Shown piece after piece: positions 4,740 through 31,972 of a stretch of DNA of 32,000 nucleotides (the first letter of the stretch is position 1; each line of letters opens with the position of its first letter). The stretch is taken from NCBI RefSeq assembly GCF_000020385.1, contig NC_010814.1, positions 3,540,001 to 3,572,000 on the forward strand, written 5' to 3'. Below the pieces are notes generated by a model, which saw nothing but the letters and a program-made list of their open reading frames with translations, had not been told where the DNA came from and did no database searches. A program made the position numbers and the translations under genes. The DNA comes from Trichlorobacter lovleyi SZ (GTDB taxonomy: Bacteria; Desulfobacterota; Desulfuromonadia; Geobacterales; Pseudopelobacteraceae).

Positions 4740-4767
4740 CCATTATGGCCAGGACCGTTCAAACCGG

Positions 4768-4795: not shown

Positions 4796-4845
4796 CACAC
4801 GCCAGACGGACAGGGCGGCTCGGGCTGCCCCAAAGGAGATAATCT

Positions 4846-16285: not shown

Positions 16286-16846
16286 ATGATCCGCCCCTTC
16301 AAAGGCATCACCCCTCAAATCGACCCATCTGCCTTTATTGCCGAGACCGCCGTGGTAATCGGCGAAGTCAGTATCGGTGCCCAGGCCAGTCTTTGGTACA
16401 ATGTGGTGGCCCGTGGTGACGTCAACTCCATCAGCATTGGTGCCCGCAGTAACATCCAGGATCTGACCATGCTGCATGTGACCCATAAGAAGCACGCCGA
16501 TGATCCCGGCGCCCCGCTGGTCATCGGCAATGACGTGACAGTGGGCCACTCCGTCACCCTGCATGGCTGCACCTTGAAGGATGGCTGCTTTATCGGCATG
16601 CAGGCCATGGTGATGGATAAAGCCGTTGTTGGCGAAGGCGCCCTGGTGGGTGCCCGGGCGCTGGTCACTGAAGGGACCGTTATCCCGCCCCATACCCTCT
16701 GGGTTGGCGCTCCGGCCAAGTACAAGCGGGACCTGACCCCGGACGAGATCGCCTGGCTGAACAAGTCTGCTGACAATTATGTACGCTATTCGCGGGAGTT
16801 TCTTGAGGAAGGACTGGGCGAGCAATTTGAGCAGCCATCTGTTTGA
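16286..16846 (+). CDS. Gamma-class carbonic anhydrase / hexapeptide-repeat (YrdA/PaaY-like) protein
   Basis: 186 aa. Left-handed beta-helix hexapeptide repeats (IAETAVVIGEVSIGAQASLWYNVVARGDVNSISIGARSNIQDLTMLHV) with His ligand positions. AAGGAG SD. Confidence 0.85.
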   Translation: MIRPFKGITPQIDPSAFIAETAVVIGEVSIGAQASLWYNVVARGDVNSISIGARSNIQDLTMLHVTHKKHADDPGAPLVIGNDVTVGHSVTLHGCTLKDGCFIGMQAMVMDKAVVGEGALVGARALVTEGTVIPPHTLWVGAPAKYKRDLTPDEIAWLNKSADNYVRYSREFLEEGLGEQFEQPSV

Positions 16847-16916: not shown

Positions 16917-17170
16917 CATTTGTTGTAAAGGCTGGGAAGAGGAGTAGTAACAGAGGTACATCCTTGAGAGAGCCGGTGGGTGGTGCGAACCGGTGGATGG
17001 AAACTGTGAACTCGCCTTGGAGCCGCTCCGGTGAACCGCCAGTAGTCGGAGACGAGTTATCCACGTAACGGATCAATTAAGGTTTGCAGCTCGCTGCAAA
17101 CGAAGTAGGGTGGTACCACGAAAGCTACGCGCCTTCGTCCCTGCAACAGGGCGGAGGCGTTTTTTATTTC
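16917..17170 (+). promoter_or_regulatory. T-box leader (tRNA-Leu sensing, specifier CUC) with intrinsic terminator
   Basis: AG-bay GAGAGAG (16966-72) and distal-loop-like GGTGGTGCGAA (about 16978-88). Specifier-loop GAA-CTC-G has CTC at 17011-13. The stem III hairpin is GTTTGCAG-CTCG-CTGCAAAC (17082-17101). The T-box sequence is AGTAGGGTGGTACCACG (17104-20), whose UGGU bulge can pair with an ACCA 3' end. A terminator follows. Confidence 0.75.
17130..17170 (+). terminator. Intrinsic terminator of the T-box leader
   Basis: CGCCTTCGTCCCTG-CAA-CAGGGCGGAGGCG followed by TTTTTTATTT. The 5' arm overlaps sequence that can alternatively pair with the T-box (antiterminator). Confidence 0.7.
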
Positions 17171-17196
17171 AGGACACCACACACAGGAGGTGGAGC

Positions 17197-18756
17197 ATGG
17201 CAAAGGCCAAGCAGTCAACAAAAGACGAGACACGGACAATCAAAATTTTTGACACCACGTTGCGGGATGGCGAGCAGGCACCGGGCAACAGCATGAATAT
17301 TGAGGAAAAACTACGCTTTGCCAAGCAGCTACAAAAGCTGAACGTAGACGTGATTGAGGCAGGCTTCCCGATCGCTTCAGAAGGTGACTTTGAGGCGGTC
17401 AAGAAAGTAGCCCAATCCATCAAGGGGCCTGAGATTGCCGGTCTGTGCCGCTCTAACCTGAAGGATATAGACCGGGCCTGGGAGGCACTGAAATACGCCG
17501 GTGAAAAAGGGCGGATCCACACCTTCATCGCCACCTCAGATATCCATATGAAGTACAAGCTGCAGATGGAACCGGCACAGGTACTGGAGTCAGCCGTCAA
17601 AGCGGTCAAGCGGGCTGCAGGCTATACCCCCAACGTTGAATTCTCCTGCGAGGATGCGGTACGGACCCAGCTGCCGTTTCTGGCCCAGGTGGTAGAAGCG
17701 GTGATCGCTGCCGGTGCCACCACGGTTAACATCCCGGACACCGTCGGCTACACGGTACCGTTTGAGTACTTCAATATCATCAAGTACCTGAAGGATAACG
17801 TGCCCAACATTGAAAAGGCCGTGATCTCGGTGCATTGTCACAATGACCTGGGGCTGTCGGTGGCCAACTCCATTGCAGCGATACAGGCCGGCGCCGGCCA
17901 GGTGGAATGCACCATCAACGGCATCGGTGAACGGGCCGGTAACTGTTCGCTGGAAGAGTTTGTCATGATCCTGCGGACCCGCCGCGACATCCTGCCCTTT
18001 GTCACCGGCATCGCCACGGAGCAGCTGACCCCGGCCAGCCGCCTGCTGACGAACATCACCGGCATTGCGGTGCAGCCCAACAAATCGGTGGTCGGTGCCA
18101 ACGCCTTTGCCCATGAGGCCGGCATTCACCAGCACGGCATGCTGATGGACAAATCCACCTATGAGATCATGACCCCTGAATCAGTCGGCCTGACTGCCAG
18201 CGCCCTGGTACTGGGCAAACACTCCGGCCGCCACGCCTTTAAAAAGCGGCTGGAGGAGCTGGGGCATGACCTGGATGACGAGATGTTGAACCGCGCCTTT
18301 GAACGTTTCAAGGCCTTGGCGGACCTGAAGAAAGAGGTCTTTGACGAGGACCTGGATGCGATTGTAACCGATGAATCACGGGAAGAGGATCAGTACAAGC
18401 TGGAACATATTACCGTGACCTGCGGTTCTTTTGCTGTGGCGACGGCTACGGTGCAGATGGAGATCAACGGCAAACCGGTTCGTACGGCTGAACTGGGGGA
18501 CGGACCGGTTGACTCCGCCTTCAAGGCGATCCGCAAGCTGACCAAAACCAAGGCCAAGCTGACCCAGTACAACGTCGGCTCGATCACCGGCGGCACCGAT
18601 GCCCAGGGCGAGGTAACCGTCAGAGTGGAAGAAGGCGGTCACACCGTGGTGGGCAAAGGGGCCTCAACGGATATCATCGTGGCCTCGGCCAAGGCGTACA
18701 TCCACGCCCTGAACCGGCTGCACTGCAAGCAGAAGCGTTTGACGGACGCTGTTTGA
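17197..18756 (+). CDS. leuA: 2-isopropylmalate synthase
   Basis: IKIFDTTLRDGEQAPG, HCHNDLGLSVANS and a C-terminal LeuA-dimer regulatory domain. Start moved from the track's 17110, which lies inside the T-box, to the ATG at 17197 with an AGGAGG SD. Confidence 0.92.
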   Translation: MAKAKQSTKDETRTIKIFDTTLRDGEQAPGNSMNIEEKLRFAKQLQKLNVDVIEAGFPIASEGDFEAVKKVAQSIKGPEIAGLCRSNLKDIDRAWEALKYAGEKGRIHTFIATSDIHMKYKLQMEPAQVLESAVKAVKRAAGYTPNVEFSCEDAVRTQLPFLAQVVEAVIAAGATTVNIPDTVGYTVPFEYFNIIKYLKDNVPNIEKAVISVHCHNDLGLSVANSIAAIQAGAGQVECTINGIGERAGNCSLEEFVMILRTRRDILPFVTGIATEQLTPASRLLTNITGIAVQPNKSVVGANAFAHEAGIHQHGMLMDKSTYEIMTPESVGLTASALVLGKHSGRHAFKKRLEELGHDLDDEMLNRAFERFKALADLKKEVFDEDLDAIVTDESREEDQYKLEHITVTCGSFAVATATVQMEINGKPVRTAELGDGPVDSAFKAIRKLTKTKAKLTQYNVGSITGGTDAQGEVTVRVEEGGHTVVGKGASTDIIVASAKAYIHALNRLHCKQKRLTDAV

Positions 18757-18770
18757 TTTCACGGAATCAC

Positions 18771-18795
18771 AGGGGCAGGTCTCAGACCTGCCCCT
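18771..18795. terminator. Bidirectional hairpin between the convergent leuA and sigma-54 activator gene
   Basis: AGGGGCAGGTC-TCA-GACCTGCCCCT, a perfect 11-bp stem. It overlaps the activator stop codon by 2 nt. The flanking U-tracts are poor. Confidence 0.55.
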
Positions 18796-21601
18796 ACAAA
18801 CGCACCGTCTTGTAGAGGAAATTCTTAAACTTATACAGCGCCTTACGCTGCTCATCATCGCTCATGCCGTCAGTCAAGGCTCTCAGATTCCGCGCCACTG
18901 CCGGCAGTGGCCGACCTGCAAAGGCGCGACTCTTCTCCACCACCAGCCTGACCACATCACGAGAGATATCATTGCGGGTAAACGGTTCGTAGAGATCCTG
19001 CCAGAAGTTGCCCCCCTGGCGGATCTTCTCAATAATCGTATCAGCCAGATGGCTTGCCAACTCCCGGCCATCACCGGCCGAGGTAACACTGCCCAGTCCG
19101 ACTCCCTTGATTGCCTGCCGGATCGATTCCCCGCCGATCACATTCCCCCGCCTGAAGAACATCGCCCGCAGCAGGATTGAACGCAGCTCCCGGATGTTCC
19201 CCTCATACTGGTGCAGTACCAGCTCTGATTTGGCGTCTGCCGCCAATACCGGCGGATCATCAGGGTCGTTCTGGCCCCGGTAGGTGCGGTAGAGCTTGCC
19301 CAGAAAATGCACCGCCAGGTCGGGAATATCCTCCCGCCGCTCATTCAGGGACGGCAGGCGGATCGAGAGCTCTGCCAGACGGTGATAAAGATCCTCCCTG
19401 AAACGGCCTGCTGCAATCTCGGCCGGCAGATCCCTGTTGGTGGCTGCCACCAGCAACACCCGGCTGAAACGTTCCATGTTCTCCCCCAACCGGACAAACC
19501 CGCCGTTATCCAGAAAGCGCAGCAGTTGTACCTGGGTTTTGGGGTCGGCATCACCGATCTCATCCAGAAAGACCACCCCGCCCATACACTCTTCCAGGAT
19601 ACCGCGCCGGTCACTGGAGGCACCGGTAAAAGCCCCCTTTTTGTGCCCAAACAGCTCTGAATAGGTCAGCTCACCACTATAGGCAGCGATATTGGTCTTT
19701 TTTACCGGCAACTCGCCCTGAGGATTCAGTTGCAGCCGGTATAGCGAGTTGAGTGTGTTATAGAGGTTGTTGAAAAAAAACTCCTTGCCTGAACCGGTCG
19801 GTCCGGTAATCAGAATCGACGGCAGACCGATGGTGGCCTCCTGCATCACATTTTTGCTCCAGAGCGTAACCCGGTTAAAGAGCGGCTGTGATACCGTATT
19901 GATAAAATCAATCACCGCCTGGGAGGTGGGACTGACCCCGATGATGTTTCCCAGGCGGTAGGAAGAGACATGAGGATCCTTGTAGCCGACATCGGTGGTC
20001 AGACGCTGCACTTCCCCCTGCAGTCCCTCGATCCGCTGCAGATCAGAGAGATGGCGGGCCGTCAAAGACCCGATAATCTGCAGGATGCGACGGTGTTCCT
20101 CGGTAAAATAGCTGTAACGCAACGAGTTAAGGCAGATAACCGCAATCACCTCACCATCACAGACCACCGGCACCGCAATCTCACTCTTCAGCAGATCGCT
20201 CATGGAGCGGTGAAATCCCTCACCGGTCCGCTCTTCATCCACACTGCCGATAATCTTGGGCTGCTGGCTCCAGGCCACATAGCCGGTCAGGCTGCGTTCT
20301 TCAGGGGCTAGCTCCCCACCCCCCACAAGAAAAGGAGGGATGTAACGCTTCAGCCACTCCTTATTTTTGGCTCCGACAAGCGTCCCTTGCTCATCCTCCA
20401 CCACCAGCCAGCGCCGGCCATCCCGTTCTTCAACCAGGGCAATGCTACCGGTATCGGCACCGATCAGCTCAGTGGCCTTGGCCAGCACCTTGGTCAAAAA
20501 CGGCTGCAGGGTGGCATCTCCTTGATTCAGCAGGTCGGTGATCTCGGACAACACCCGGATCTCCAGGTGCTCGCCACCGACGCCGCTGACCACGCTGGCA
20601 AGCATCTCGGCATGCCCCTGCAAAAGCCCCATCTCAAACTCTGAAAAACGATATTCTTCTCGACAGAAATAATTGACCAGACAGATCACCCGGTGGCTGT
20701 GGGGATCAAAACGCGGTACCACATAGAGGCTACGCAGCGACATCTGTTCGGTCAGCTCACGCTTCTGCAGATCATGGCGGGCCAGGTCATTGATAAAGAG
20801 CGGCTTAAGTAGCCTGTCATCTCTGATGATGGCCTGCACATCCACATAGCGGGAGATTAGCGATGCACCGGGCTCCAGCAGGATCGCACCCAGACGGTCA
20901 TACTGCATCTGCAGGGCAGGATCTTCGGCATAGCTGGCCAGCACCTCAAGCGCAGCAGAACCGTCACTGGAAACCAATGGGGTCAGCACCGAGGCCAGGG
21001 CCACCTTTTCCACCAGGCGCACTGCTGAGCGAACCATCTGCCCAGCAGCCTCCCGTTTTTTTGATTCCTCAAGCCGGCGGGCCAGCTGCACCTGCTGATG
21101 GTAGCTGCGTGCCTCATCCAGCCGTTCCGCCAGCTGCAGGATGAATTCTGCCAGGCGGGACTTGACCTTGCCGGACAGCGCCAAATCGCCATGCCTGCTG
21201 TCAATGCACAGCACGCCGATGGAGCGGCCACGACTGACAAGGGGCAGATAACTGCTGGACGCGATATTGAAGCGACCGGCAACCGCACCATCAAGCGTTC
21301 CGGCTGCACCGTCACCGCTACGGAAGTCAGCGGGGTACTGACTGACAAAAACCCGTGATACCACGGCGTCTTGCGTAATAATAGGAAAAGCCACCTCACG
21401 CAGTTCAGCCCCATCAGGACCGCTGGCAAAGGCACAGGTCAATGCACCTGAGATCAGGTCTTCAAGATAGATCCTGACCAGATCAACGCCCGAAATCAGT
21501 CTGACCCCTTCGGCCAGCACATAGAGCAGCTCAGTCTGGTTTTCCTTACCATAGCCATCAATCTTTACGCGTAACGCCTGCAGCGACTCATCCTGTGGCA
21601 T
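18794..21601 (-). CDS. Sigma-54-dependent transcriptional activator (EBP) with about 560-aa N-terminal sensor region (three GAF-like domains)
   Basis: AAA+ core: Walker A GPTGSGKE, GAFTGA loop (GHKKGAFTGA), Walker B VVFLDEIGD, and VRLGENM...RVLLVAATNRDL. The N-terminus is GAF-like (..IGVLCIDS.., ..VICLVNYF.., ..IAVICLNS..). Start set at the ATG at 21601 (MPQDESL) with AGGAGGGTG SD, rather than the track's 21652. Confidence 0.85.
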   Translation of the reverse strand: MPQDESLQALRVKIDGYGKENQTELLYVLAEGVRLISGVDLVRIYLEDLISGALTCAFASGPDGAELREVAFPIITQDAVVSRVFVSQYPADFRSGDGAAGTLDGAVAGRFNIASSSYLPLVSRGRSIGVLCIDSRHGDLALSGKVKSRLAEFILQLAERLDEARSYHQQVQLARRLEESKKREAAGQMVRSAVRLVEKVALASVLTPLVSSDGSAALEVLASYAEDPALQMQYDRLGAILLEPGASLISRYVDVQAIIRDDRLLKPLFINDLARHDLQKRELTEQMSLRSLYVVPRFDPHSHRVICLVNYFCREEYRFSEFEMGLLQGHAEMLASVVSGVGGEHLEIRVLSEITDLLNQGDATLQPFLTKVLAKATELIGADTGSIALVEERDGRRWLVVEDEQGTLVGAKNKEWLKRYIPPFLVGGGELAPEERSLTGYVAWSQQPKIIGSVDEERTGEGFHRSMSDLLKSEIAVPVVCDGEVIAVICLNSLRYSYFTEEHRRILQIIGSLTARHLSDLQRIEGLQGEVQRLTTDVGYKDPHVSSYRLGNIIGVSPTSQAVIDFINTVSQPLFNRVTLWSKNVMQEATIGLPSILITGPTGSGKEFFFNNLYNTLNSLYRLQLNPQGELPVKKTNIAAYSGELTYSELFGHKKGAFTGASSDRRGILEECMGGVVFLDEIGDADPKTQVQLLRFLDNGGFVRLGENMERFSRVLLVAATNRDLPAEIAAGRFREDLYHRLAELSIRLPSLNERREDIPDLAVHFLGKLYRTYRGQNDPDDPPVLAADAKSELVLHQYEGNIRELRSILLRAMFFRRGNVIGGESIRQAIKGVGLGSVTSAGDGRELASHLADTIIEKIRQGGNFWQDLYEPFTRNDISRDVVRLVVEKSRAFAGRPLPAVARNLRALTDGMSDDEQRKALYKFKNFLYKTVRL

Positions 21602-21710
21602 CGCCACCCTCCTGAGTGTTTTAACTACACGCTTAAGATACACGCTATACACGACACAGGCAAGGACACAAGAGTTTACCGCCTGATACTGCTGTTCATA
21701 TTTCTAGCGA

Positions 21711-21739
21711 TTGACTTAAGCTTATTATTTAAATATTAT
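21711..21739 (+). promoter_or_regulatory. Sigma-70 promoter in an AT-rich spacer upstream of the first GGDEF-EAL gene
   Basis: TTGACT (21711-16), 17-nt spacer, TATTAT (21734-39). It is followed immediately by the palindrome AATTTTAAAATT (21740-51). Confidence 0.45.
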
Positions 21740-21758
21740 AATTTTAAAATTTAATCAG

Positions 21759-23891
21759 ATGCAGTTTTTTCTGCCACCTGCGAGCGTTCCTGTACAAAAG
21801 GGTCTTCCGATGCCCGATACCAGCATACCCTACAAACAGGTTTTTTCAGCAATCCCGGCACCGGTGATTATGCTGGACACTCAGGGGCACTTTGCCTTTG
21901 CAAACAAGGCCGCCTACCAGATTCTCCCCTCCTGCATCCCTCTCGACGACGGGGTAAGCTGCACACCACCAGACTGGCTTGCCACTGAAATAGATACATT
22001 CCTGTATCATGCCAAAGAAGAGCATACATTCGAACACTGCCTGCCACTTGACACGGGGCACCGTCATATCCAATTCACCCTGACCCGGTTGGACCAGGAC
22101 AAGCGCCAGAACGGCATCCTGATTACACTGCACGACATCAGCCGACACAAGCGGGCCGAGCAGGCCCTGCGCCTAAGCGAAGAACGGTACCGCATGCTGG
22201 TTGAACATCAGAGTGATCTGGTTGTCAGGGTTGATATCGAAGGCAGACTGCAGTTTGCCAGCCCCTCCTTCTGCATGCTGTTCGGCATTGACGAAGAACA
22301 GCTGGTGGGGCGGGAGCTCTGCCCGATCATCAACAGCAGCGGTCAGGCGGTTATGAAAGAGGCCATGCAGCGCCTGGACTGCCACCCCAAGTCCTGTTAT
22401 CACGAAATCTGCTCCCAGACCCTGGATGGTCTCCGCTGGATCGGCTGGGCCATGAAGGGGGTGGTGGATGAAAAGGGCCATATTGAGGCCATCGTCGGTA
22501 TCGGGCGCGACATTACCGACCGCAAAAAGGCCGAGCAGGAGATACTCCAGCTTGCCCATTACGATACCCTGACCGGCCTGCCTAACCGCAGCCTGCTCCA
22601 GGACCGCTTGTCCCAGGCCCTTTCGCTGGCCAACCGGGGCAATGTCACCCTGGCGGTACTTTTTCTCGATCTGGATCGTTTTAAGCACGTCAATGACGCC
22701 TTTGGTCACCAGATTGGCGATCTGTTGCTGCAGGAGGTCAGCCGCCGCCTGAAAGACTGCGTGCGTGCCACCGACACAGTATCCCGGATCGGCGGCGATG
22801 AGTTTGTGATCATCCTGACCAATCTGATCAAGTGCAGCCAGGCCGGATCAATAGCCGCCAAGATCATCAGCTCCATGAGCCGCCTCTTTCAGCTGGGAGG
22901 CCATGAACTGTACAGTGGCACCAGCATCGGCATCGCCCTCTACCCGACAGACGGCAATGATGTTGACACCCTGCTGAAGCATGCCGATATGGCCATGTAC
23001 CAGGCCAAAGCGAGTGGCCGGGGCACCTTCAAGTTCTTTTCTCCGGAACACAACGAGAAAATGCTGCAGCGTATGCAACTTGAACAGGCGTTACGCCGGG
23101 CAATTGAGCATCAGGAGCTGTCCCTTGACTACCAGCCACAGATCGACAGTGCAACCGGCAGCATCAACGGCCTTGAAGCCTTGCTGCGCTGGCAGCACCC
23201 CCAGCTGGGGCTGTTACTGCCGGGACTGTTCATCACCATTGCAGAGGAAACCGGACTGATCATCCCGTTGGGGGAATGGGTATTACGGACCGCCTGCAGG
23301 CAGGCACGGGCCTGGCAGCGGGCCGGCTACCACCGGCTGCGGATAGCGGTCAACATCTCTCCGCGCCAGTTCCAGCAACGGGGTCTGATACCGATGATCG
23401 ACGCAATCCTGCAGGAAACCGGCTGCGATCCGCGCGGGCTTGAACTTGAGCTGACCGAGACCACCCTGATGGACAGCCCCAAGGAAGCGACTGCCCTGCT
23501 GAAGGCGTTGAAACGCCGCGGGATCAGTCTGGCTATTGACGATTTCGGCACCGGCTATTCATCGCTCAGCCACCTCAAGCACTTTCCGATCGACCGGCTC
23601 AAGATCGACCGGTCCTTCGTCAATGATCTGACCCGCAGCCGCGAGGATAGCGCCATTGTCGAGGCAATCATCGCCATGGCCCACCGGCTGGGGCTGGAGG
23701 TAGTGGCCGAAGGGGTGGAACATCCTGATCAACATGCCATACTCAGCGACTGGGGCTGCAAGACATGCCAGGGCTTTCTCTACAGCAAGGCCGTTTCAAC
23801 CGAAGAGGCAACGGCACTACTAGCCACAGCTCAGTATTCCACAGGGATCCCAAGCACTTTGACGCCCCAGACAAAACCAGCAGACGATTGA
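21759..23891 (+). CDS. PAS-PAS-GGDEF-EAL c-di-GMP turnover protein
   Basis: 710 aa. Two PAS domains, GGDEF (RIGGDEF, I-site RATD 5 aa upstream), and EAL with EALLRW, NISPRQ, ELELTE, DDFGTGYSSL, KIDRSF, EGVE and QG. The start is uncertain (21759 or the ATG at 21807); neither has a good SD. Confidence 0.85.
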   Translation: MQFFLPPASVPVQKGLPMPDTSIPYKQVFSAIPAPVIMLDTQGHFAFANKAAYQILPSCIPLDDGVSCTPPDWLATEIDTFLYHAKEEHTFEHCLPLDTGHRHIQFTLTRLDQDKRQNGILITLHDISRHKRAEQALRLSEERYRMLVEHQSDLVVRVDIEGRLQFASPSFCMLFGIDEEQLVGRELCPIINSSGQAVMKEAMQRLDCHPKSCYHEICSQTLDGLRWIGWAMKGVVDEKGHIEAIVGIGRDITDRKKAEQEILQLAHYDTLTGLPNRSLLQDRLSQALSLANRGNVTLAVLFLDLDRFKHVNDAFGHQIGDLLLQEVSRRLKDCVRATDTVSRIGGDEFVIILTNLIKCSQAGSIAAKIISSMSRLFQLGGHELYSGTSIGIALYPTDGNDVDTLLKHADMAMYQAKASGRGTFKFFSPEHNEKMLQRMQLEQALRRAIEHQELSLDYQPQIDSATGSINGLEALLRWQHPQLGLLLPGLFITIAEETGLIIPLGEWVLRTACRQARAWQRAGYHRLRIAVNISPRQFQQRGLIPMIDAILQETGCDPRGLELELTETTLMDSPKEATALLKALKRRGISLAIDDFGTGYSSLSHLKHFPIDRLKIDRSFVNDLTRSREDSAIVEAIIAMAHRLGLEVVAEGVEHPDQHAILSDWGCKTCQGFLYSKAVSTEEATALLATAQYSTGIPSTLTPQTKPADD

Positions 23892-23943
23892 CAGAGGCAC
23901 CTGCCAGAGCCTATTATGCCCCTGCACCATCAGGAGGCACCCT

Positions 23944-26841
23944 ATGGAACAGGCATCTGACTGCTATACACAGATAGTTGAGGCATTACCGACACCAATT
24001 CTGCTCCTCAGGCACAATGGCGTCATACTGCACGCCAACGCCCCCGCCGCCTGTCTGCTGGAAACCCTTGAAGGCATTATCCCCCAGCCGGAAATAACCC
24101 TGGCTCCGCATTGGATCATGGAAGAGCTTGAGTGTTACCACTCACAGGGCCTGCCTTCCCACCAAGCAGAAAAAAGTCTGATCAGCACCACCAACAGCCA
24201 TTCCTTTGTCCTGATCAGCATTAAACGCCTGCGCCCCGACAACGACAATCTGCTGCTGGTCACCATCAACGATCTTTCCAAACTGCATCTGGTTGAAGAC
24301 GGCCTGCGTCAGCTGGTGGAAGGGATCTCCGAGGCCACCGGTGAAAAATTTTTCCAGTTCCTGGCCTTGCATCTGGCAAAGGGTCTGGATGCCGATTTTG
24401 CCTTTATCGGTGAGTTTGCCGATAGCGAGCGCACCATCATCCAGACCGTGGCGGTTGCTGCCGATGGCGCCATACATGCCAACTTCCGGTTCCCGCTTGC
24501 GGAGACCCCCTGCGAACAGGTACTGACCAACGGCCTGCGGATCTACCCCAAAGCGATCCCCGAGTTATTCCCGCTTGATCATCTTGCCCTGGAGATGGGT
24601 GTTGAGAGCTATATCGGCATCCCGCTCGTCAGCTCCCGCAGGATAACCCTGGGACCGATGGCGGTCTTCAGCCGGCGTCCGATCAGAGAGACCCACTTGG
24701 CCGCATCCATGCTGCAGGTATTTGCCGTACGGGCAGCCTCGGAACTGGAACGCCGCCAGGCGGAACGGGTCCTGAAAGAGACAGAGGCACGTCTTAAGAC
24801 CATTGTTGATTCGGTCCATACCGGTATTCTGGTGATTGATCCTGAAAACCACCGGATCGTTGATGTCAATGAGCTGGCTGCCAGCAGCCTCGGCAGAACA
24901 CGCGAAGAGATGATCGGCACTTCATGCCATCGCTTCATCTGCCCCAATGAGGAAGGGCGCTGCCCCATCACCGACCTGCAGCAGGAGCTGGACAATGAAG
25001 AGCGTGATCTGATCCGGGCTGATGGCAGCCGCCTGCCGGTGATCAAGACCGTCAGTCGTGTCGTGCTGGATGGGCGAGAGCATCTTCTGGAAAGCTTTGT
25101 CGACATCAGCAGGCGCAAACAGGTGGAGAACAGCCTGAAGGAAAGTGAAGAGCGCTATCGAATGCTGGTTGAAAACCAGGCAGACCTGGTCATCAAGACC
25201 GATATGACAGGCAACCTGCTCTTTGTCAGCCCCTCATTCTGCAAACTTTTCGGCCAGACCGAGGAAAAACTGCTCGGCAAAGCGCTCTTGCCGGTCATCA
25301 TGTTGCCTGAGCAGCTCGCCACAGCCGCTGGGATGGAGCAGATGATCTGCAGTGATACCAGCTATTACCGCGAGTATCTCTCTCCGACACGGGAGGGCAA
25401 GCGCTGGATCGGCTGGGCGTTGCGCTGCATCTTCAACCAGTCCGGTCAGGCAGAGGCGATTATCGGTATGGGGCGGGATATTACTGATCGCAAAACAGCT
25501 GAAAGCACCATTGAGCAGTTGGCCTACCATGACCCGGTCACCGGCCTGCCGAACCGGACGCTGCTGCATGATCGTCTTCAGCTGGCAATCAACCGTGCTG
25601 AACGGGACAGCCAGGGTGTGGCGATCCTGTTTCTTGACCTGGATCGTTTCAAGGCAATTAACGATTCACTGGGGCATGCCATGGGCGATCAGCTACTGCG
25701 CCTGGTCGGCAATCGGCTGCTTGACTGTGTTCGTTCATCGGATACAGTGGCCCGCCTAGGGGGTGATGAGTTCGTAGTGTTGATTTCAGCCCTTGATAAT
25801 GACCATGCCGTGGGCAGCGTGGTCATGAAGATCCTGGAGCAGCTGTGTGAGCCGTACCAGATTGACGATCATGAGGTCTACACCTCTTCCAGTATCGGCA
25901 TCTCACTCTTTCCCCGTGATGGCCGCGATGCCGAAGAACTGTTGAAAAATGCCGACATGGCCATGTACCAGGCCAAAGAGGCCGGTCGTAACACCTGCCA
26001 CTTCTTCTCACCGGAGCTGAACATGCGGGCGACTGAACGGTTGCTGCTTGAGAGCACCATGCGCCGGGCCCTGGAACGGGAGGAATTTTTTCTGGTCTAT
26101 CAGCCCCAGATGGAGTTACGCAGCGGACATATTGCGGGGATCGAGGCATTGCTGAGATGGCGGCATCCAGATCTGGGGGTTGTGCCGCCAAACAATTTTA
26201 TTCCAATTGCAGAAGAAACCGGCCTGATTGTGCCGTTGGGGGAATGGGTACTGGCCGAGGCCTGCCGGCAGGCGGTGCGCTGGCAACAGGAGGGGCAACC
26301 CCCGCTGCGGATGGCGGTGAACGTTTCTGCCCGTCAGTTTCGCCAACGCAACCTCGGCCTGCGGATCGAAAAAATCCTGATGGAAACCGGCCTTGACCCT
26401 GCATTGCTGGAGCTTGAGCTGACTGAAAGCGCAGTCATGGAAAACCCGGAAGAAGCGATCCTGACCCTGCGTCAGCTGAAAAAGATGGGGATTACTCTCT
26501 CCATCGACGACTTCGGCACCGGCTACTCATCACTGTCACATCTCAAACACTTTCCGATCGACCGGCTCAAGATCGATCGTTCCTTTGTCAAGCATGTCAC
26601 CCGGGACCACAATGACGCCACCATTGCCGAGGCGATCATCGCCCTGGCCCACAGTATGAAGCTGACGGTTGTTGCCGAGGGGATCGAACACAGTGAGCAG
26701 ATGGAGTTTATGCACCAGCGTCACTGCGACACCATGCAGGGCTACTACCTGTCGCGACCGGTAACCGCCGAGGAGTTCGGCACGTTTCTCAAAAGGCTGG
26801 GGGAATCGGACGGCAAGGCCCATGGTCTGCTGGGAGGATAA
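23944..26841 (+). CDS. PAS-GAF-PAS-PAS-GGDEF-EAL c-di-GMP turnover protein (paralogue of the upstream gene)
   Basis: 965 aa. AGGAGG SD. GGDEF (RLGGDEF, I-site RSSD) and an EAL domain with all catalytic motifs. The C-terminal ~580 aa aligns along its length with the preceding protein, including the identical stretch IDDFGTGYSSLSHLKHFPIDRLKIDRSFV. Confidence 0.88.
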   Translation: MEQASDCYTQIVEALPTPILLLRHNGVILHANAPAACLLETLEGIIPQPEITLAPHWIMEELECYHSQGLPSHQAEKSLISTTNSHSFVLISIKRLRPDNDNLLLVTINDLSKLHLVEDGLRQLVEGISEATGEKFFQFLALHLAKGLDADFAFIGEFADSERTIIQTVAVAADGAIHANFRFPLAETPCEQVLTNGLRIYPKAIPELFPLDHLALEMGVESYIGIPLVSSRRITLGPMAVFSRRPIRETHLAASMLQVFAVRAASELERRQAERVLKETEARLKTIVDSVHTGILVIDPENHRIVDVNELAASSLGRTREEMIGTSCHRFICPNEEGRCPITDLQQELDNEERDLIRADGSRLPVIKTVSRVVLDGREHLLESFVDISRRKQVENSLKESEERYRMLVENQADLVIKTDMTGNLLFVSPSFCKLFGQTEEKLLGKALLPVIMLPEQLATAAGMEQMICSDTSYYREYLSPTREGKRWIGWALRCIFNQSGQAEAIIGMGRDITDRKTAESTIEQLAYHDPVTGLPNRTLLHDRLQLAINRAERDSQGVAILFLDLDRFKAINDSLGHAMGDQLLRLVGNRLLDCVRSSDTVARLGGDEFVVLISALDNDHAVGSVVMKILEQLCEPYQIDDHEVYTSSSIGISLFPRDGRDAEELLKNADMAMYQAKEAGRNTCHFFSPELNMRATERLLLESTMRRALEREEFFLVYQPQMELRSGHIAGIEALLRWRHPDLGVVPPNNFIPIAEETGLIVPLGEWVLAEACRQAVRWQQEGQPPLRMAVNVSARQFRQRNLGLRIEKILMETGLDPALLELELTESAVMENPEEAILTLRQLKKMGITLSIDDFGTGYSSLSHLKHFPIDRLKIDRSFVKHVTRDHNDATIAEAIIALAHSMKLTVVAEGIEHSEQMEFMHQRHCDTMQGYYLSRPVTAEEFGTFLKRLGESDGKAHGLLGG

Positions 26842-26987
26842 CATGGCAAGAGTAAACATTGATAAAGGACAAGCAGATCAGGAATGAGGATTTTTTTGTT
26901 CTGGCTGTAACGAGCAAAGTCTGGCGCGGAGGCGTACTACCGAGGCAGGTACCATTCGAAATTATTTCCAAAAACCACTCAGCTGTC

Positions 26988-27113
26988 ATTCCAGTTTTAT
27001 AGCAAGGATGAAATCAAGGCGGCAAGGAGGTTGCGACGCAGGCGTATATGACAATACGTCGAGGAGCAACCGACGAAGCCAACGCAGATAGCGCCTTGAT
27101 AGAAAATTGGAAT
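26988..27113. repeat. 126-nt structured imperfect palindrome between convergent genes
   Basis: The outer arms ATTCCAGTTTTATAGCAAGG (26988-27007) and CCTTGATAGAAAATTGGAAT (27094-27113) are inverted repeats matching at 17 of 20 positions. An inner perfect 9-bp pair joins ATCAAGGCG (27013-21) and CGCCTTGAT (27092-27100). GGTTGC/GCAACC and CGTAT/ATACG helices lie inside. CAAGG occurs 3 times on the left side. Confidence 0.4.
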
Positions 27114-28954
27114 CACAAGCCCTGGCGGATCTGATACATCTCCTCCAGATCCAACCCGTTCTGCTCATAGTACTCCCGCTCCAGCTCCTCGACATAGAAA
27201 CGGTCCAACCCGGCATTGGCCAGAAAGTCCTCCCTCAGGTGCGCATTTTTCTCAGCAATAATGGTTGGCAACAGAGACTGCAGGTAGACCGCTTCCTTCT
27301 GGATTGTAGTAACTGTTTCCTGAAAAACATGGTCCGGCAGGTCTACGGCCAGTTTTTTACGGGCCTTTAACTCTTCCAGCACTTCTCGGCGCAGCACATC
27401 CTGCTCCGCCTTGGTGCCATAACTTGAATAGAAGTTTCGTACCCGATGCCGTACCAGTTCAAGCACCATCAGATAGAGCCGTTCCTCCTGATCAACGGCA
27501 ATCAGGCGACTGTGCAGCGCCTCAAGTGTCTGCTGGTCCTCCTGCACCAGAGGCAGGCCCTCCATCAGGGCCGTCATCTTCATCCGCCCAAAGCGCCCCA
27601 GGTAGGGGTTTTCAAACAATTCCTTCACAAACAGCTCTTCAAAACAGCCGGGCTCCAGATTTTCAAAGGCGGCACGATGTTCCAGCAGGCCCTGCAGCAT
27701 CTCTTCGGTTATGCGCACATTTTCCATGAAAGCCAACTGCCCGATCAGAGACAGGGTACTGTCCAGCCGGTCAAGATAGGTAATCACATAGGAAAACCCC
27801 TCCAACAAGGCAGGGTCGGCACCATCCCTGATTTTTTCGTCACAGGTACGACTGAAATCCAGCATCAGCTGATCAAAATGATGGTCTCGGGCGGCAATTG
27901 CCCATTTTTTTGCCTTGATCAGGGTCAGCATATCGTCCCGATCAATGGAGCTGTCAATCTCTTGCTGATGCAGGAAGAACCCCTCCAGAATCTGGCGGGT
28001 CTGGGCAATGTAGTCGGCCTCCTCACGGGCCTCCTTCAGGTTGCGGCCCTTCTTCAGCAGTTCGTCGAGGGTAAAGAAGAGGGCACCGGGGATCTTGTTG
28101 CGTACGGAGAGCGCCTTCAAGCGATTCAAACGGGCATTTTCCAGTGTGCTGATCTCGCCCCTGGCAGTACAGCCGATCAGGATACTGCGGTATTCATCAA
28201 CAATCCGGCGGTTCAACGGATGACGGTACATCACATCAATCCGCATCCGCTCCTGCTGATAACGGTCAATCTGATGGCCACTTGCCAGGCTCATCAAACG
28301 GGCAAAATCATCATCGGCAATCTTTTTCGAACGGAAATACAGTGAACGGAACAGGTCGCGATAGGCCTTGTGGCGCGTATTGATCAGCTTGATAATAAAC
28401 AGCTGGGCACCTTCATCCTGCAACAGCGGAAACAACTCGTCAACCAGCAGGTCGTCGCGTTCTTCACCTACTGCCGGGGTACGTTTCAGGGTCTTGCCCA
28501 GCAGGCGGACCAGCTCCTGCTGTTGCTCGCCCAGCTTGCGGGAAAGTCTGGGAGAATGGACGCAGAAAAAATAGTTGCAGACCGCATTTCCTTCAAAAAA
28601 AATGGTGTCGTAGGATTCATGCCCACTGGTCTGTTCACTGAAGTGAAGGCCTCCCCCCTCTTCCTCAAGGCAGGCACCGTTCATGACCAGACGGTTGATG
28701 ATCTCTGTCTTGGTCAGGTCGGAAGTGGGTTGTTCCACCCCGAACATATATTCGCAGAAATGACCGCCGTTCCCCTCAAAGCGGATCCCTTTCTGGCCCA
28801 GGACAAATTCGTTGCCGGGCGAAAAGATTCGCAGCTCATCAGCTTCCTGCACAATATTGAAAAAATAGCGCTGGTAGGCCTCGGTGCCCACCACCAGCAC
28901 AAAATACTCGATCCCGTTAGCAAGCTGGCCATGGAGGCGTATATCTTTCTGCAT
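27113..28954 (-). CDS. Hypothetical 613-aa cytoplasmic protein (beta-rich ~150-aa N-domain + long acidic helical region); no motif recognised
   Basis: Long ORF with a GGGGGGAG SD, 68 nt downstream of the MBL gene on the same strand. No signal peptide, TM segment, Walker A or other catalytic signature is visible. Coding-like composition. Confidence 0.7.
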   Translation of the reverse strand: MQKDIRLHGQLANGIEYFVLVVGTEAYQRYFFNIVQEADELRIFSPGNEFVLGQKGIRFEGNGGHFCEYMFGVEQPTSDLTKTEIINRLVMNGACLEEEGGGLHFSEQTSGHESYDTIFFEGNAVCNYFFCVHSPRLSRKLGEQQQELVRLLGKTLKRTPAVGEERDDLLVDELFPLLQDEGAQLFIIKLINTRHKAYRDLFRSLYFRSKKIADDDFARLMSLASGHQIDRYQQERMRIDVMYRHPLNRRIVDEYRSILIGCTARGEISTLENARLNRLKALSVRNKIPGALFFTLDELLKKGRNLKEAREEADYIAQTRQILEGFFLHQQEIDSSIDRDDMLTLIKAKKWAIAARDHHFDQLMLDFSRTCDEKIRDGADPALLEGFSYVITYLDRLDSTLSLIGQLAFMENVRITEEMLQGLLEHRAAFENLEPGCFEELFVKELFENPYLGRFGRMKMTALMEGLPLVQEDQQTLEALHSRLIAVDQEERLYLMVLELVRHRVRNFYSSYGTKAEQDVLRREVLEELKARKKLAVDLPDHVFQETVTTIQKEAVYLQSLLPTIIAEKNAHLREDFLANAGLDRFYVEELEREYYEQNGLDLEEMYQIRQGL

Positions 28955-29022
28955 GCTGAACTCCCCCCAGTTTCAGATCGAGGATGCTGTCAAGGCGACC
29001 GGACAGTATCGCGACATGGGAC

Positions 29023-29784
29023 TCAGCGTTCCAGCTCGAAGTTCATGCCGTCATATGCGAATTCAACACCGTTCGGCAGCCGACGCTCATCTGCGTGGCG
29101 CACCTCGTGGGTCAGGTGGGTCAGGATCATGCGCCGCACCCCCAGTTCTCTGAGCGCAGCAATGGCCCCTTCAATATTAAAGTGAAAAGGATGGGGCGAC
29201 CAGCGCAGACCGTCAACCACTACTGTAGCAACTCCCTGCAACAATGCAAGTGATGCCGGTGGAATTGCACTGCAGTCAGTCAGATAAGCAAAAGAACCGA
29301 TCCGGTAGCCACAGGAGCCATCAACACCATGCTCCAGCGGAACCGGCAGCACCTGCAGCCCGAACAGATCAAAGGGACCGCCGGTCACCCTGGCCTCCAG
29401 AAGCGGGGGATGAGTGGCACCCTTCTCTTGATGGAAGACATAGCCAAATCCGCTCAACAGGCGTTCCATGGTGGCCGGGCAGGCATAACAGGGGATCACC
29501 TGACGGTGCAGAAAATAAAAACCTCGCAGGTCATCGATACCATTGACATGGTCGGCATGGGCATGGGTAAACAGCACCGCATCAATCTGCGGTACCATCT
29601 CACGCAGCATCTGGCTGCGCAGATCAGTTGAACTGTCCACCAGGATGTTCTTTCCGGCATGACGAATCAGCAGTGACGCCCTGCTGCGGCGATCGCGCGG
29701 GTCGGAAGAGCTGCAGACCGGACAGCTGCAGCCAACCATGGGAACTCCGGTGGAAGTTCCACTGCCAAGGACAATAATCTTCAT
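29023..29784 (-). CDS. MBL-fold metallo-hydrolase, PhnP-like subgroup
   Basis: 253 aa. HAHADH motif (LFTHAHADHVNGIDD), an N-terminal Cys knuckle GCSCPVCSS as in PhnP-type phosphodiesterases, and downstream His/Asp ligands (LEHG.., THLTHE). Confidence 0.85.
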   Translation of the reverse strand: MKIIVLGSGTSTGVPMVGCSCPVCSSSDPRDRRSRASLLIRHAGKNILVDSSTDLRSQMLREMVPQIDAVLFTHAHADHVNGIDDLRGFYFLHRQVIPCYACPATMERLLSGFGYVFHQEKGATHPPLLEARVTGGPFDLFGLQVLPVPLEHGVDGSCGYRIGSFAYLTDCSAIPPASLALLQGVATVVVDGLRWSPHPFHFNIEGAIAALRELGVRRMILTHLTHEVRHADERRLPNGVEFAYDGMNFELER

Positions 29785-29793
29785 AGGTCAGGC

Positions 29794-29822
29794 AGAATAC
29801 CAGATGGCCTTGACGCAGGCAA
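29794..29822 (-). promoter_or_regulatory. Sigma-70-like promoter for the MBL / 613-aa operon (very short leader)
   Basis: The minus strand reads TTGCCT, 17-nt spacer, TATTCT, then 9 nt, then the ATG (29784). No SD. Confidence 0.3.
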
Positions 29823-29836
29823 GGCGGTTTTCCCCC

Positions 29837-29865
29837 TTGCATCAACTCCGGTCAGCCGCCATAAT
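29837..29865 (+). promoter_or_regulatory. Sigma-70-like promoter for the GT4 gene (predicted leaderless)
   Basis: TTGCAT (29837-42), 17-nt spacer, CATAAT (29860-65), then 6 nt, then the ATG (29872). No SD. Confidence 0.35.
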
Positions 29866-29871
29866 GTCACC

Positions 29872-30903
29872 ATGCGCATTGCACTTTTCTGTCCCTTTAC
29901 CCAGGGCCCTACCCGGGGAAACATTACCAGCGTGCAGCGAATAGCACGGCATTTGCAGCTCAACGGCAACCAGGTTGACCTGATCCCCCTTGACGCCCCT
30001 GACCGTTCCCTCTGCCTGCAGCGGCTGATTGCAGCACCACCAGACCTGCTGCATGCCTTCCATGCCTTTCACGCCGGACCAATAACCCGCAGTATGGCAC
30101 ACACGCTTGGAGTTCCGTATCTGATCACCCTAACCGGCAGCGACCTGTTTGACCCAGCCTTGCGAGATCACCCCGAAACCCTGCTGGCCCTCAACGATGC
30201 GACCAGCATTACCTGCTTTGACCACTTGGTGGCAGAACTTGCAACCCAGACATTCCCTCGGATTGCCGGCAAGCTGGTGGTGATCCCCCAAGGGGTTGAA
30301 CCCTTTGCGGTTCCTGTCGCAGCGGAACGGACTACTGACCGTTTTTGCATCCTGCTGCCTGCAGCACTGCGGCCGGTCAAGGGGATCGACTACGCCATCA
30401 CTCACCTGGCTCCGCTTGCAGCAGAGCGGCCCGAGCTGCGGCTCTGGATTGCCGGCGGGAGCCTTGACGACACGTATACTGAAGCAATAGAGAGGCAAGC
30501 AGCCGGGCTGCCATGGGTAAAACTGTTAGGCGAGATCCCCCATCAGGAGATGGGAGCTCTCTATGCCGTTGCGGATCTGGTGCTGAACAGTTCGCAGTTT
30601 GAGGGGGGAATGGCTAACGCCCTGCTGGAAGCCATGGCAATGGCAAAACCGGTACTGGCCCGTGATGTACCGGGCAACCGCTCACTGATCCACCATGGCA
30701 GGACCGGCTGGCTCTACCGGGACGGCAGCGACTTATGCAACCAGACCAGACAACTGATGGATGATCCGGCACTGCGGGACACTGTTGCGCGTCAAGCCCG
30801 GCAGCATGTTCTGACGCAGTACTCTCCGCAACAGGAGGCCGGTTTACTGATCCGGCTTTACCACTCTCTGCTGCCTGCCCCTGGCAGCGGTGGAGCAAAA
30901 TAA
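29872..30903 (+). CDS. Family 4 (GT-B) glycosyltransferase
   Basis: 343 aa. MRIALFCPF start, and a C-terminal E-x7-E region FEGGMANALLEAMAMAKPVLARDVPGNRSLI typical of GT4/GT1 retaining transferases. Confidence 0.85.
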   Translation: MRIALFCPFTQGPTRGNITSVQRIARHLQLNGNQVDLIPLDAPDRSLCLQRLIAAPPDLLHAFHAFHAGPITRSMAHTLGVPYLITLTGSDLFDPALRDHPETLLALNDATSITCFDHLVAELATQTFPRIAGKLVVIPQGVEPFAVPVAAERTTDRFCILLPAALRPVKGIDYAITHLAPLAAERPELRLWIAGGSLDDTYTEAIERQAAGLPWVKLLGEIPHQEMGALYAVADLVLNSSQFEGGMANALLEAMAMAKPVLARDVPGNRSLIHHGRTGWLYRDGSDLCNQTRQLMDDPALRDTVARQARQHVLTQYSPQQEAGLLIRLYHSLLPAPGSGGAK

Positions 30904-30929
30904 AAACGGGGAGCAGCAGCCCCCCGTTT
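30904..30929. terminator. Bidirectional intrinsic terminator between GT4 and the OMP gene
   Basis: AAACGGGG-loop-CCCCGTTT. It has an A-run upstream and a T-run downstream, and the minus strand reads ...CCCCGTTTTTA. Confidence 0.65.
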
Positions 30930-30960: not shown

Positions 30961-31722
30961 CTAGAAGTTGATGTCCAGTTGGGTAGTAAAGGTCGGTTTG
31001 CCGCCGTACAGGGTCTTCTGGAAGGGGTTGTAGAAGTTTGCGCCAACCAGCACAGAGACGTTTGGCGTAAAGGCCCAGGAAGCACCTGCAGAAAGCGCAC
31101 TGTAGTAGTTATTGCCGCCCATGTAGTCTACTGCCATCCAGAGTTTGTCAGAGATCTCACTCATGGTCCGGTCCCAGGAAACCAGCACGCCATTGTTGTA
31201 CTTATGGCCCAGGTTTTTCTCTGCCCCATTGTAACCACCTGCTGAAAGACGCCCAACTACCGGCAGGGTCTTGGCCACAAGTCCATACGCAACGTTGGAC
31301 ATGGTGTTGCCGGAAAGCCCGCGATCAAACGTACCGATACCATACATACCTGCAGCTAACGCCGGCATGCCTTTGAAGAAGGCATCTTCAGGAATGGCGC
31401 CTTTAAAGTTAAAGTAGATGGGATGCTTGCTGGCAATTGAATCATTGCCCTGAAGCCCGTCCGTCATGTAATCGACACCGATTTCCAGCTTGAATTTTTC
31501 AAAAGGGAGTACACCTACGGTCACACCGGCATCATAGGTATTAGCACCGGCATCGTTGGCATTCGAAAAACGGATATAGTTATCAATACTGATGTTGACC
31601 TCTTTGAAGCCTTTGGCATCGGTGGACGGAATCCAGATTTGTCCTGACGGTGTGGCCAGGGCTGCGGTAGCACAGGACAGGGTCAGGGCTGCTGCCAGGA
31701 TCATGCTGCGAACTGATTTCAT
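30961..31722 (-). CDS. Small outer-membrane beta-barrel protein (253 aa)
   Basis: Signal peptide MKSVRSMILAAALTLSCATAALA. Alternating aromatic/Gly-rich beta-strand pattern and a C-terminal ...TTQLDINF (terminal Phe). Strong GGAGGAG SD. Confidence 0.7.
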   Translation of the reverse strand: MKSVRSMILAAALTLSCATAALATPSGQIWIPSTDAKGFKEVNISIDNYIRFSNANDAGANTYDAGVTVGVLPFEKFKLEIGVDYMTDGLQGNDSIASKHPIYFNFKGAIPEDAFFKGMPALAAGMYGIGTFDRGLSGNTMSNVAYGLVAKTLPVVGRLSAGGYNGAEKNLGHKYNNGVLVSWDRTMSEISDKLWMAVDYMGGNNYYSALSAGASWAFTPNVSVLVGANFYNPFQKTLYGGKPTFTTQLDINF

Positions 31723-31972
31723 AAGTACTCCTCCTATGGGGGGTGATTGGCACCTGCATAAAGCGGATCAAATGCGCCGTTGTTGACATTGCTGTAACAG
31801 TAAGCGTGCCAATAATGAGCACAAATTTGGTTGCAGTTGTTTGGCATTTGATTACAATAGGTTACAAACAGGAGCAATTGGAACCTGATGCACTTAATCG
31901 CACCACGCCCATGCAACATGACCATTTATTCAGCATTTCGTGCCCTATTGTGCAGCACCCAGGAGTTAGACC

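Follow-up and report, generated by a model that had tools for sequence, protein, structure and literature searches.

Which genes form a functional unit around the 613-aa protein encoded next to a metallo-β-lactamase (MBL)-fold hydrolase gene in Trichlorobacter (Geobacter) lovleyi SZ, and what might that unit do? We analyzed 32,000 nt of this genome (NC_010814.1; this whole stretch is called the window below), in which the two genes lie near those of a family 4 glycosyltransferase (GT4), a small outer membrane protein (OMP)-like protein, two cyclic di-GMP (c-di-GMP) proteins, and a sigma-54 activator. A first-pass annotation, made from the DNA alone, had called the 613-aa protein an orphan and tentatively suggested the names "GPMC system" and TIGR0444x for such a gene set; both names turned out to be exactly right in NCBIfam and RefSeq. 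A hidden Markov model search of the four proteins, which it had proposed as a check, placed each above its curated NCBIfam cut-off. The 613-aa protein matched TIGR04442, a hypothetical equivalog, with 1090.8 bits (cut-off 150), residues 3-611 covering positions 1-608 of the 608-position profile. The hydrolase matched NF038231 (GPMC system MBL fold metallohydrolase; 406.3 bits, cut-off 360), the glycosyltransferase NF038229 (GPMC system family 4 glycosyltransferase; 436.5 bits, cut-off 400), and the activator NF038230 (GPMC system transcriptional regulator; 1580.6 bits, cut-off 1200). RefSeq gives the same GPMC labels to the identical T. lovleyi SZ proteins. Because four cut-offs were passed and the identical proteins bear these names, it is close to certain that the locus is the T. 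lovleyi SZ copy of the gene set that NCBI calls the GPMC system; nothing in it differs from the catalogued entity.

The open reading frame (ORF) of 613 codons is a real gene and not a chance ORF, since the protein matches WP_012471359 / ACD97035 of T. lovleyi SZ with 100% identity, and 469 of 185,579 species-representative genomes encode relatives of it. All TIGR04442 homologues also carry a newer, precomputed Pfam label, PF27907 (CHP04442), so that "orphan" is too strong a word for a protein with NCBIfam and Pfam models. The GPMC system is already known as an entity, with named proteins and with models in both databases, but it is a catalogue entry without a function, and the full text of 8 million papers and preprints yielded no publication assigning one to the system, to TIGR04442, or to PF27907. 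New here is how far its core extends, that the core genes carry no sigma-54 promoters, and that the confidently modeled 71-kDa TIGR04442 protein has no fold neighbor.

The core was delimited by a synteny survey of 80 species loci (the best-scoring of 469, with 10-kb flanks, mostly from Geobacterales) searched with the window proteins; denominators below 80 count the loci with enough flank for the neighbor concerned. In 75 of 78 loci, the MBL gene immediately preceded the TIGR04442 gene in the same orientation. The distance from the MBL stop to the TIGR04442 start was at most 100 nt in 77/80 loci, mostly between -8 and +30 nt, and the genes overlapped in 11. In 44 of 61 loci, a regulator gene of the same orientation followed TIGR04442 at a distance of up to 10 kb, and in 33 of these the distance was at most 1 kb. 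The GT4 gene was divergently adjacent in 11/68 loci, all from the Trichlorobacter clade, and in one further, metagenomic locus (L090). OMP-like genes were found anywhere within 10 kb in 11/80 loci, at varying positions, and PAS-GGDEF-EAL genes were adjacent in 5/65, exclusively in the Trichlorobacter clade. The MBL-TIGR04442 pair makes up the core of the system; the regulator often joins it as a third member and GT4 intermittently as a fourth, and the OMP-like and c-di-GMP genes are no more than local neighbors. The first-pass proposal of a genuine, conserved, and uncharacterized module is thus supported, including the linkage of the 613-aa homologues to the MBL and sigma-54 activator genes. 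Two of its parts fell away: the OMP-like protein as a component, and the c-di-GMP genes, a Trichlorobacter-specific insertion, as its control.

On the chromosome, the position of the locus is conserved: it is flanked by dapF and a leuA-like gene. In the common Geobacteraceae layout, dapF (minus strand) is followed on the plus strand by LbH, Nramp, MBL, TIGR04442, a FlgM-like ORF, and the regulator, and then by the leuA-like gene (minus strand). In T. lovleyi, in contrast to other Geobacteraceae, the segment from MBL to leuA (~17000-29800) is inverted, the Nramp and FlgM genes are lost, and a GGDEF-EAL pair, consisting of tandem paralogues 54% identical to each other, is inserted in opposite orientation between TIGR04442 and the regulator. 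A FlgM-type ORF (Pfam FlgM, 3e-9) lies between these two genes in 28 of 74 loci, among them L024, L025, L033, L036, L057, and L067; none is present in the window. This ORF encodes ~95 aa with a C-terminal FlgM (anti-sigma-28) domain and is found ~50-150 nt past the TIGR04442 stop. An identification of the GPMC regulator with FgrM, the Geobacter flagellar enhancer-binding protein, was considered and dropped, as nothing linked the two despite the FlgM-like neighbor. TIGR04442, GT4, and the OMP-like protein had no match in PADLOC, and the hydrolase had only a generic one of 22 bits. We did not count the set among anti-phage systems because PADLOC gave no support and the chromosomal position is conserved, not that of a mobile island.

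The coupling of the pair extended to distant relatives. In L081, where TIGR04442 identity is 30%, an MBL gene whose product is a clear NF038231 member (410 bits) lies immediately upstream and overlaps the TIGR04442 gene; in L084 (33% identical), the order is swapped, TIGR04442 preceding MBL, and the genes abut. L090 (56% identical) has a compact arrangement, with GT4 on the minus strand and MBL, TIGR04442, and the regulator on the plus strand, and GT4 adjacency is therefore kept, or regained, in a second lineage. The MBL-TIGR04442 pair is tightly coupled, vertically inherited, and cytoplasmic. As separate observations, L088 (6885-12592) and L089 (7558-13223) each hold a lone TIGR04442 gene between a xerC-type recombinase gene and a gene for a 680-aa thioredoxin-domain (DsbH-like) protein. 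In L083 (11978-14417), TIGR04442 is followed by a 178-aa ORF and then by a gene for a 633-aa PilZ-domain protein, a second, weak association with c-di-GMP. Paralogy of TIGR04442 with this PilZ protein was tested and rejected, as was paralogy with the GPMC regulator.

The hydrolase carries FTHAHADH, an HxHxDH metal motif, and GCSCPVCS, a CxCxxC structural-zinc knuckle at the N terminus, both recognized in the first-pass annotation. E. coli PhnP is the 5-phosphoribosyl-1,2-cyclic phosphate phosphodiesterase of the phosphonate pathway. With PhnP (3g1p) and with the group of PRK02113, 6b9v, and 3py5, the hydrolase shares the fold, the HxHxDH motif, and the N-terminal Cys-rich structural-zinc knuckle, and it aligned over its full length to the solved structures 6b9v (8e-64, the closest), 3py5/3md7 from Brucella (~1e-46), and 3g1p (8.5e-17). 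It is not a PhnP orthologue, reaching 92.1 bits against the PhnP equivalog (cut-off 272); against PRK02113, it reached 227 (cut-off 386). PhnP lacks a TIGR04442 partner, whereas the window hydrolase is paired with TIGR04442 and has no phn genes nearby, none being present among the annotated ORFs of the window. A paper citing 6b9v calls it a Mn2+ "FAD photoproduct diphosphatase" (PMC7599082). Judged by these motifs and alignments, the hydrolase displays all the sequence features expected of an active PhnP-type metallo-phosphodiesterase. In 23 of 66 loci (for example, L071, 7881-9134), a gene for an Nramp divalent-metal importer immediately precedes MBL in the same orientation. One locus, L035 (4421-8192), contains three tandem Nramp copies.

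TIGR04442 is a small and self-contained family. A HMMER scan of 1.84 billion representative proteins gave just 196 TIGR04442 clusters at 50% identity, of which ~35 were full length, all with 580-638 residues and no consistent extra domain. Fusions with CelD_N, BNR, ABC2, receiver, and other domains appeared among the short hits; they were heterogeneous and were taken as assembly chimeras. Between Geobacteraceae genera, the protein is unusually conserved (~67% identity), and other lineages, among them metagenome-assembled genomes (MAGs) of Thermoanaerobaculia (Acidobacteriota), have members at 24-40% identity; some MAG labels on short contigs (Dongiaceae, Verrucomicrobia) are probably binning errors. 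The protein has no signal peptide or transmembrane segment and is predicted to be cytoplasmic. Its body had been described as acidic: the pI of the whole protein is 5.3, yet residues 141-300 are basic (pI 9.3), with many invariant Lys/Arg. Conservation is concentrated at residues 61-93, 119-130, 231-255, 275-298, 360-398, 449-459, and 573-596, and no His or Cys is conserved. Searches of a Pfam copy lacking PF27907 gave no match at E 0.01, and when E values up to 10 were allowed, no family recurred consistently among 40 members. Against all PDB sequences, phmmer and a 40-sequence profile returned noise only (E >= 0.33). The earlier reading that the ORF has no catalytic, nucleotide-binding, transmembrane, or signal motif thus holds as far as Pfam, PDB sequences, and conserved His/Cys are concerned.

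An AlphaFold2 (AF2) model built from a 40-sequence alignment (19-89% identity) had a mean predicted local distance difference test score (pLDDT) of 85 and a predicted template modeling score (pTM) of 0.53. It featured an α/β domain up to residue ~210, with strands to ~133 plus 184-192, and ~17 helices beyond, in agreement with the β-rich head and helical body supposed at first. Structure prediction followed by Foldseek, also proposed at that stage, found no significant neighbor: the whole-chain model, the only form in which the structure was compared, gave nothing in the PDB at E 0.001 or better. By sequence and by fold, the 613-aa protein is without a characterized homologue.

We tentatively favor, as possible though short of probable, a reading in which the hydrolase and TIGR04442 form one unit that acts on a small cytoplasmic phosphodiester, with TIGR04442 as a non-catalytic partner and the activator sensing the same chemistry. 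The functional unit would be the co-translated pair, because the two genes are adjacent in nearly all loci, are separated by short gaps, and stay together at 30% (L081) and 33% (L084) identity. The hydrolase would be an active, probably Mn2+-dependent, cytoplasmic phosphodiesterase or diphosphatase, as its HxHxDH motif and Cys3 knuckle, its matches to 6b9v, 3py5, 3md7, and PhnP, and the Nramp gene upstream of it suggest. TIGR04442 would be its obligate partner in substrate recognition, regulation, or scaffolding rather than an enzyme, because it lacks conserved His/Cys, any Pfam, PDB, or PADLOC match, and a fold neighbor. Together they may turn over a sugar-phosphate or a nucleotide-like metabolite or signal.

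The predicted structure also raises an alternative that we consider decidedly unlikely, namely that TIGR04442 is an enzyme of unrecognized type, such as a very divergent PPM/PP2C-like hydrolase or transferase domain (residues ~1-230) to which a regulatory helical body is attached, and that it shares a two-step pathway with the MBL hydrolase. The recurrent Foldseek neighbors of its N-terminal ~230 residues were PP2C-type proteins (the RsbU domain 3ke6, SpoIIE 5mqh/5ucg, SiaA 6k4e, human PP2Ca 4raf, and giant-virus PP2Cs), which stood at or near the top across two independent AF2 models, two structure libraries, and three Foldseek searches; all these matches were non-significant (E 0.03-1.7, TM-score <=0.35, root-mean-square deviation 8-15 Å). 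The block at residues 61-93 (GNGGxFCEYMFGVxQPxxDLxKxExxNRLV) is the most sharply conserved stretch of the N-terminal domain, and conservation of the protein is very high for a mere scaffold. PPMs are likewise Mn2+ enzymes. The sequence comparisons, however, did not bear out the resemblance. Aligned with hhalign to PstP plus tPphA, the N-terminal profile obtained a probability of 0.1-0.2%, and PP2C membership by sequence was rejected; the Pfam models of PP2C and SpoIIE matched none of 40 TIGR04442 members, even when E values up to 10 were allowed. PPM/PP2C phosphatases such as SpoIIE, RsbU, SiaA, and PstP have metal-binding aspartate motifs, and the four metal-binding aspartates have no counterpart in TIGR04442, where D79 is the sole near-invariant Asp before residue 240. 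Positions E16, E49, and E84 are 85-93% acidic. The PP2C resemblance, seen in predicted models, is a lead and not a finding.

A role in RNA processing or repair, by analogy with Rtc systems, would make the hydrolase a nuclease or 2',3'-cyclic phosphodiesterase, TIGR04442 its RNA-binding helical partner, and the regulator their dedicated sigma-54 activator. Secondary matches of the hydrolase to RNase Z models would fit, but they are far below the cut-off (45 against 293 bits) and cover the N-terminal metal motif region only. The basic segment of TIGR04442 with its invariant Lys/Arg could suit RNA binding, yet no RNA-binding domain was detected. RtcR is the second-best NCBIfam match of the activator; this similarity is confined to the AAA+ region and is generic to all enhancer-binding proteins, and no RtcA, RtcB, or tRNA genes are linked. 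We hold this explanation to be very improbable.

What, then, could the regulator control? Pfam assigned it GAF, Sigma54_activat (3.8e-44), and AAA_lid_14 domains, and the GAFTGA motif is located at residue 673; as far as these features tell, it is a competent enhancer-binding protein. It had been described as a triple-GAF activator: the GAF assignment stands, but Pfam gives two GAF stretches, the best at residues 382-534. The -24/-12 motif TGGCAC-N5-TTGC had no match in the 87-bp spacer between MBL and GT4, and across the 80 loci, scans that also allowed a relaxed -12 element detected no -24/-12 promoter before the MBL, Nramp, LbH, and GT4 genes. In 10 loci, a sigma-54-like match 62 nt 5' of TIGR04442 was discounted, as it lies inside the MBL coding sequence. 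The regulator's targets are not the core genes' promoters, and the sigma-54 control of the module that had been envisaged found no promoter at the MBL operon or at GT4.

The spacer contains, on the MBL side (minus strand), a -35 element TTGCCT (29822..29817), 17 nt, and TGn plus a -10 element TATTCT (29799..29794), 9 nt from the ATG. On the GT4 side (plus strand), it has TTGCAT (29837-29842), 17 nt, and CATAAT (29860-29865), 6 nt from the ATG. These elements are kept in 11 loci of the Trichlorobacter clade. From such consensus matches, we infer two back-to-back sigma-70-type promoters, from one of which the T. lovleyi pair would be transcribed. Neither the MBL nor the GT4 start is preceded by a Shine-Dalgarno sequence, and this, together with -10 elements ending 6-9 nt before each ATG, suggests that both mRNAs may be leaderless or near-leaderless. 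Rfam detected no riboswitch or other RNA element near the MBL operon.

The gene order invites an unlikely, but by no means negligible, alternative centered on the activator, in which TIGR04442 would serve as an anti-activator or co-sensor by analogy with NifL-NifA, and the hydrolase would degrade the GAF ligand, for example, a cyclic nucleotide. As in NifL-NifA type pairs, the gene of a GAF-AAA+ activator comes right after a same-strand gene for a large soluble protein in most Geobacteraceae, where MBL, TIGR04442, sometimes the FlgM-like ORF, and the regulator follow each other on one strand, often with less than 1 kb before the regulator. The anti-sigma-like character of that intervening ORF, weak matches of the hydrolase to the cyclic-nucleotide phosphodiesterase families Apyc1 and NF041851, and the lack of a sigma-54 promoter before the pair, which is thus not obviously the regulator's target, are in keeping with it. 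However, TIGR04442 is tied more tightly to MBL than to the regulator, and the distant pairs L081 and L084 have no such regulator nearby. In T. lovleyi, the linkage is broken by 5.5 kb of oppositely oriented genes. TIGR04442 shows no homology to NifL, has no PAS or GHKL domains, and resembles neither the regulator nor known anti-activators.

The glycosyltransferase is a compact GT-B enzyme of ~340 aa. Its second-best NCBIfam family was TIGR04348 (SenB), matched over the full length with 92.2 bits (cut-off 300), which means that it is not a SenB orthologue, and its top four PDB sequence matches were SenB or TIGR04348 proteins. BshA and MshA, likewise compact GT-B enzymes, came next, all far below equivalog cut-offs. 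SenB, BshA, and MshA glycosylate small molecules, not polymers. Differing from the setting of the SenB selenosugar synthase, the window has no visible SenA, SenC, or SelD genes. In other Geobacteraceae, orthologues 50-55% identical are located after a recC-like gene or in other housekeeping contexts; these unlinked proteins score 377-389 bits, just below the NF038229 cut-off of 400. Regular membership of GT4 in the module, as assumed at first, is therefore not borne out beyond the Trichlorobacter clade and one distant lineage.

These data bear on the model of the first-pass annotation, in which hydrolase, GT4, an unknown scaffold, and OMP form an envelope glycoconjugate or signaling module under sigma-54 and c-di-GMP control. 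All the genes are neighbors in the window, GT4 is divergently adjacent in the Trichlorobacter clade and in L090, the OMP-like gene is preceded by a conserved sigma-54-like -24/-12 motif, and in L083 a PilZ protein is encoded two genes downstream of TIGR04442. On the other hand, the OMP-like and GGDEF-EAL genes are not conserved neighbors, GT4 is unlinked in most genomes and its nearest relatives make small-molecule glycosides, and the three conserved proteins lack signal peptides and transmembrane segments. Genes for a flippase, a polymerase, a polyprenyl-phosphate transferase, or export are missing, and the MBL operon and GT4 both lack a sigma-54 promoter. The model is poorly supported and, in our view, scarcely probable.

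The OMP-like protein itself had no match in Pfam, NCBIfam, PDB, or PADLOC. The motif before its gene, TTGGCACG-N4-CTGT at 31797-31812 (minus strand), lies 75-90 nt upstream and is kept in 7 of 11 homologues (L001, L005, L008, L014, L015, L062, and L075) in the form TTGGCACG-N4-CTG[T/A/C], the -12 base being non-canonical in most. No other sigma-54-type site was found in the locus, which also carries the regulator gene; this one is therefore a candidate target of the regulator.

Returning to the favored reading, that of a hydrolase and its non-catalytic partner acting on a small phosphodiester, synthesis or modification of this compound would fall to the SenB-like GT4 where that gene is linked, since the nearest families and structures of the enzyme (SenB, BshA, and MshA) point to action on a small molecule. 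Through its GAF domains, the activator would recognize the compound, or a product of it, and turn on sigma-54 promoters elsewhere. Several observations weigh against this reading. L088 and L089 from Thermoanaerobaculia and L083 have no adjacent MBL gene. The conservation of TIGR04442 from end to end, at 67% across Geobacteraceae genera, would equally fit a new type of enzyme. Sigma-54 scans of the window and of the 80 loci did not find the regulator's targets. GT4 is unlinked in most Geobacteraceae, where its orthologues fall below the NF038229 cut-off. The Nramp link, seen in about a third of the loci, could be plain synteny.

The features of the locus are compiled in Table 1. The gene order and coordinates given at first for the 613-aa ORF, MBL, GT4, the OMP-like gene, and the activator were all confirmed, including the 68-nt gap from MBL to the 613-aa ORF with a strong Shine-Dalgarno sequence, the 87-bp spacer to the divergent GT4, the convergence of the OMP-like gene on GT4, and the activator ~5.5 kb away across two c-di-GMP genes. 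The GGGGGAG sequence is located 7-8 nt 5' of the ATG of the 613-aa ORF, and a hairpin separates GT4 from the OMP-like gene. All four GPMC components fall inside 12.1 kb, with 5.46 kb and the two intervening PAS-GGDEF-EAL genes between the regulator and the 613-aa gene. The 270-nt gap at 26842-27112, where the second GGDEF-EAL gene and TIGR04442 end facing each other, contains no credible ORF, Rfam family, or listed terminator-like site.

Table 1. Coordinates of the GPMC locus and neighboring features in the T. lovleyi SZ window.
Feature	Position	Strand	Evidence or remark
dapF	15304-16140		ancestral orientation kept
LbH gene	16286-16810		ancestral orientation kept
GPMC-system transcriptional regulator, GAF-containing sigma-54 enhancer-binding protein	18794..21652	-	NF038230, Pfam
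Tandem PAS-GGDEF-EAL genes (21759..23891, 23944..26841)	21759..26841	+	outside conserved set
TIGR04442 / PF27907 (CHP04442) family protein, 613 aa, 71 kDa	27113..28954	-	NCBIfam, RefSeq identity, AF2 model
Intercistronic spacer, 68 nt, with Shine-Dalgarno GGGGGAG of the 613-aa ORF	28955..29022	-	sequence
GPMC-system MBL-fold metallohydrolase, 253 aa, PhnP family	29023..29784	-	NF038231, Pfam Lactamase_B_2
Divergent promoter spacer MBL/GT4, 87 bp	29785..29871	.	sequence
GPMC-system family 4 glycosyltransferase, 343 aa	29872..30903	+	NF038229
Hairpin, G+C-rich, with A-run and T-run at its flanks; bidirectional terminator of GT4 and OMP-like gene	30904..30929	.	
OMP-like secreted protein, 253 aa, neighbor only	30961..31722	-	signal peptide, C-terminal Phe

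Elsewhere in the window, a full-length T-box leader (16925-17145, plus strand; Rfam RF00230, 122.5 bits, gathering score 93) lies 5' of the leuA-like gene, and the same element precedes the leuA-like orthologue in L057 and L080. Such leaders are uncommon in bacteria other than Firmicutes. The leader overlaps the mechanically called GTG start at 17110, and the real leuA-like start is therefore further downstream. A 706-aa ORF (10326-12446, minus strand), flanked by a phosphoglucomutase-like gene and an α-glucan phosphorylase gene, and a 246-aa ORF (4743-5483, minus strand) had no NCBIfam match at 1e-5.

For a specialist, the locus is a well-defined conserved hypothetical system and no surprise. 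Its delimited core tells experimenters what to delete and co-express: MBL and TIGR04442, then the regulator, and not the OMP-like or c-di-GMP genes. The set stands at a conserved position in 80 surveyed species genomes, nearly all labeled Geobacter-type. In it, a phosphodiesterase and a dedicated sigma-54 activator are coupled with a 71-kDa protein for which no relative of known function or structure could be detected. Geobacter and related bacteria serve as models for extracellular electron transfer and bioremediation. It is a long shot, yet worth stating, that MBL, TIGR04442, and the GAF activator form a new, self-contained small-molecule signaling circuit. TIGR04442, which has no recognizable relative and possibly a remodeled PPM-like fold, would then synthesize or gate the circuit's signal, a phosphodiester that would be either a non-canonical cyclic nucleotide or a sugar-phosphodiester assembled with the help of the SenB-like GT4. 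Destruction of the signal would be the task of the Mn-dependent hydrolase, and the GAF domains would read the signal to direct sigma-54 transcription in Geobacter-type metal reducers. Once found, the substrate would assign a function to the whole catalogued system and could reveal a new metabolite or signal.

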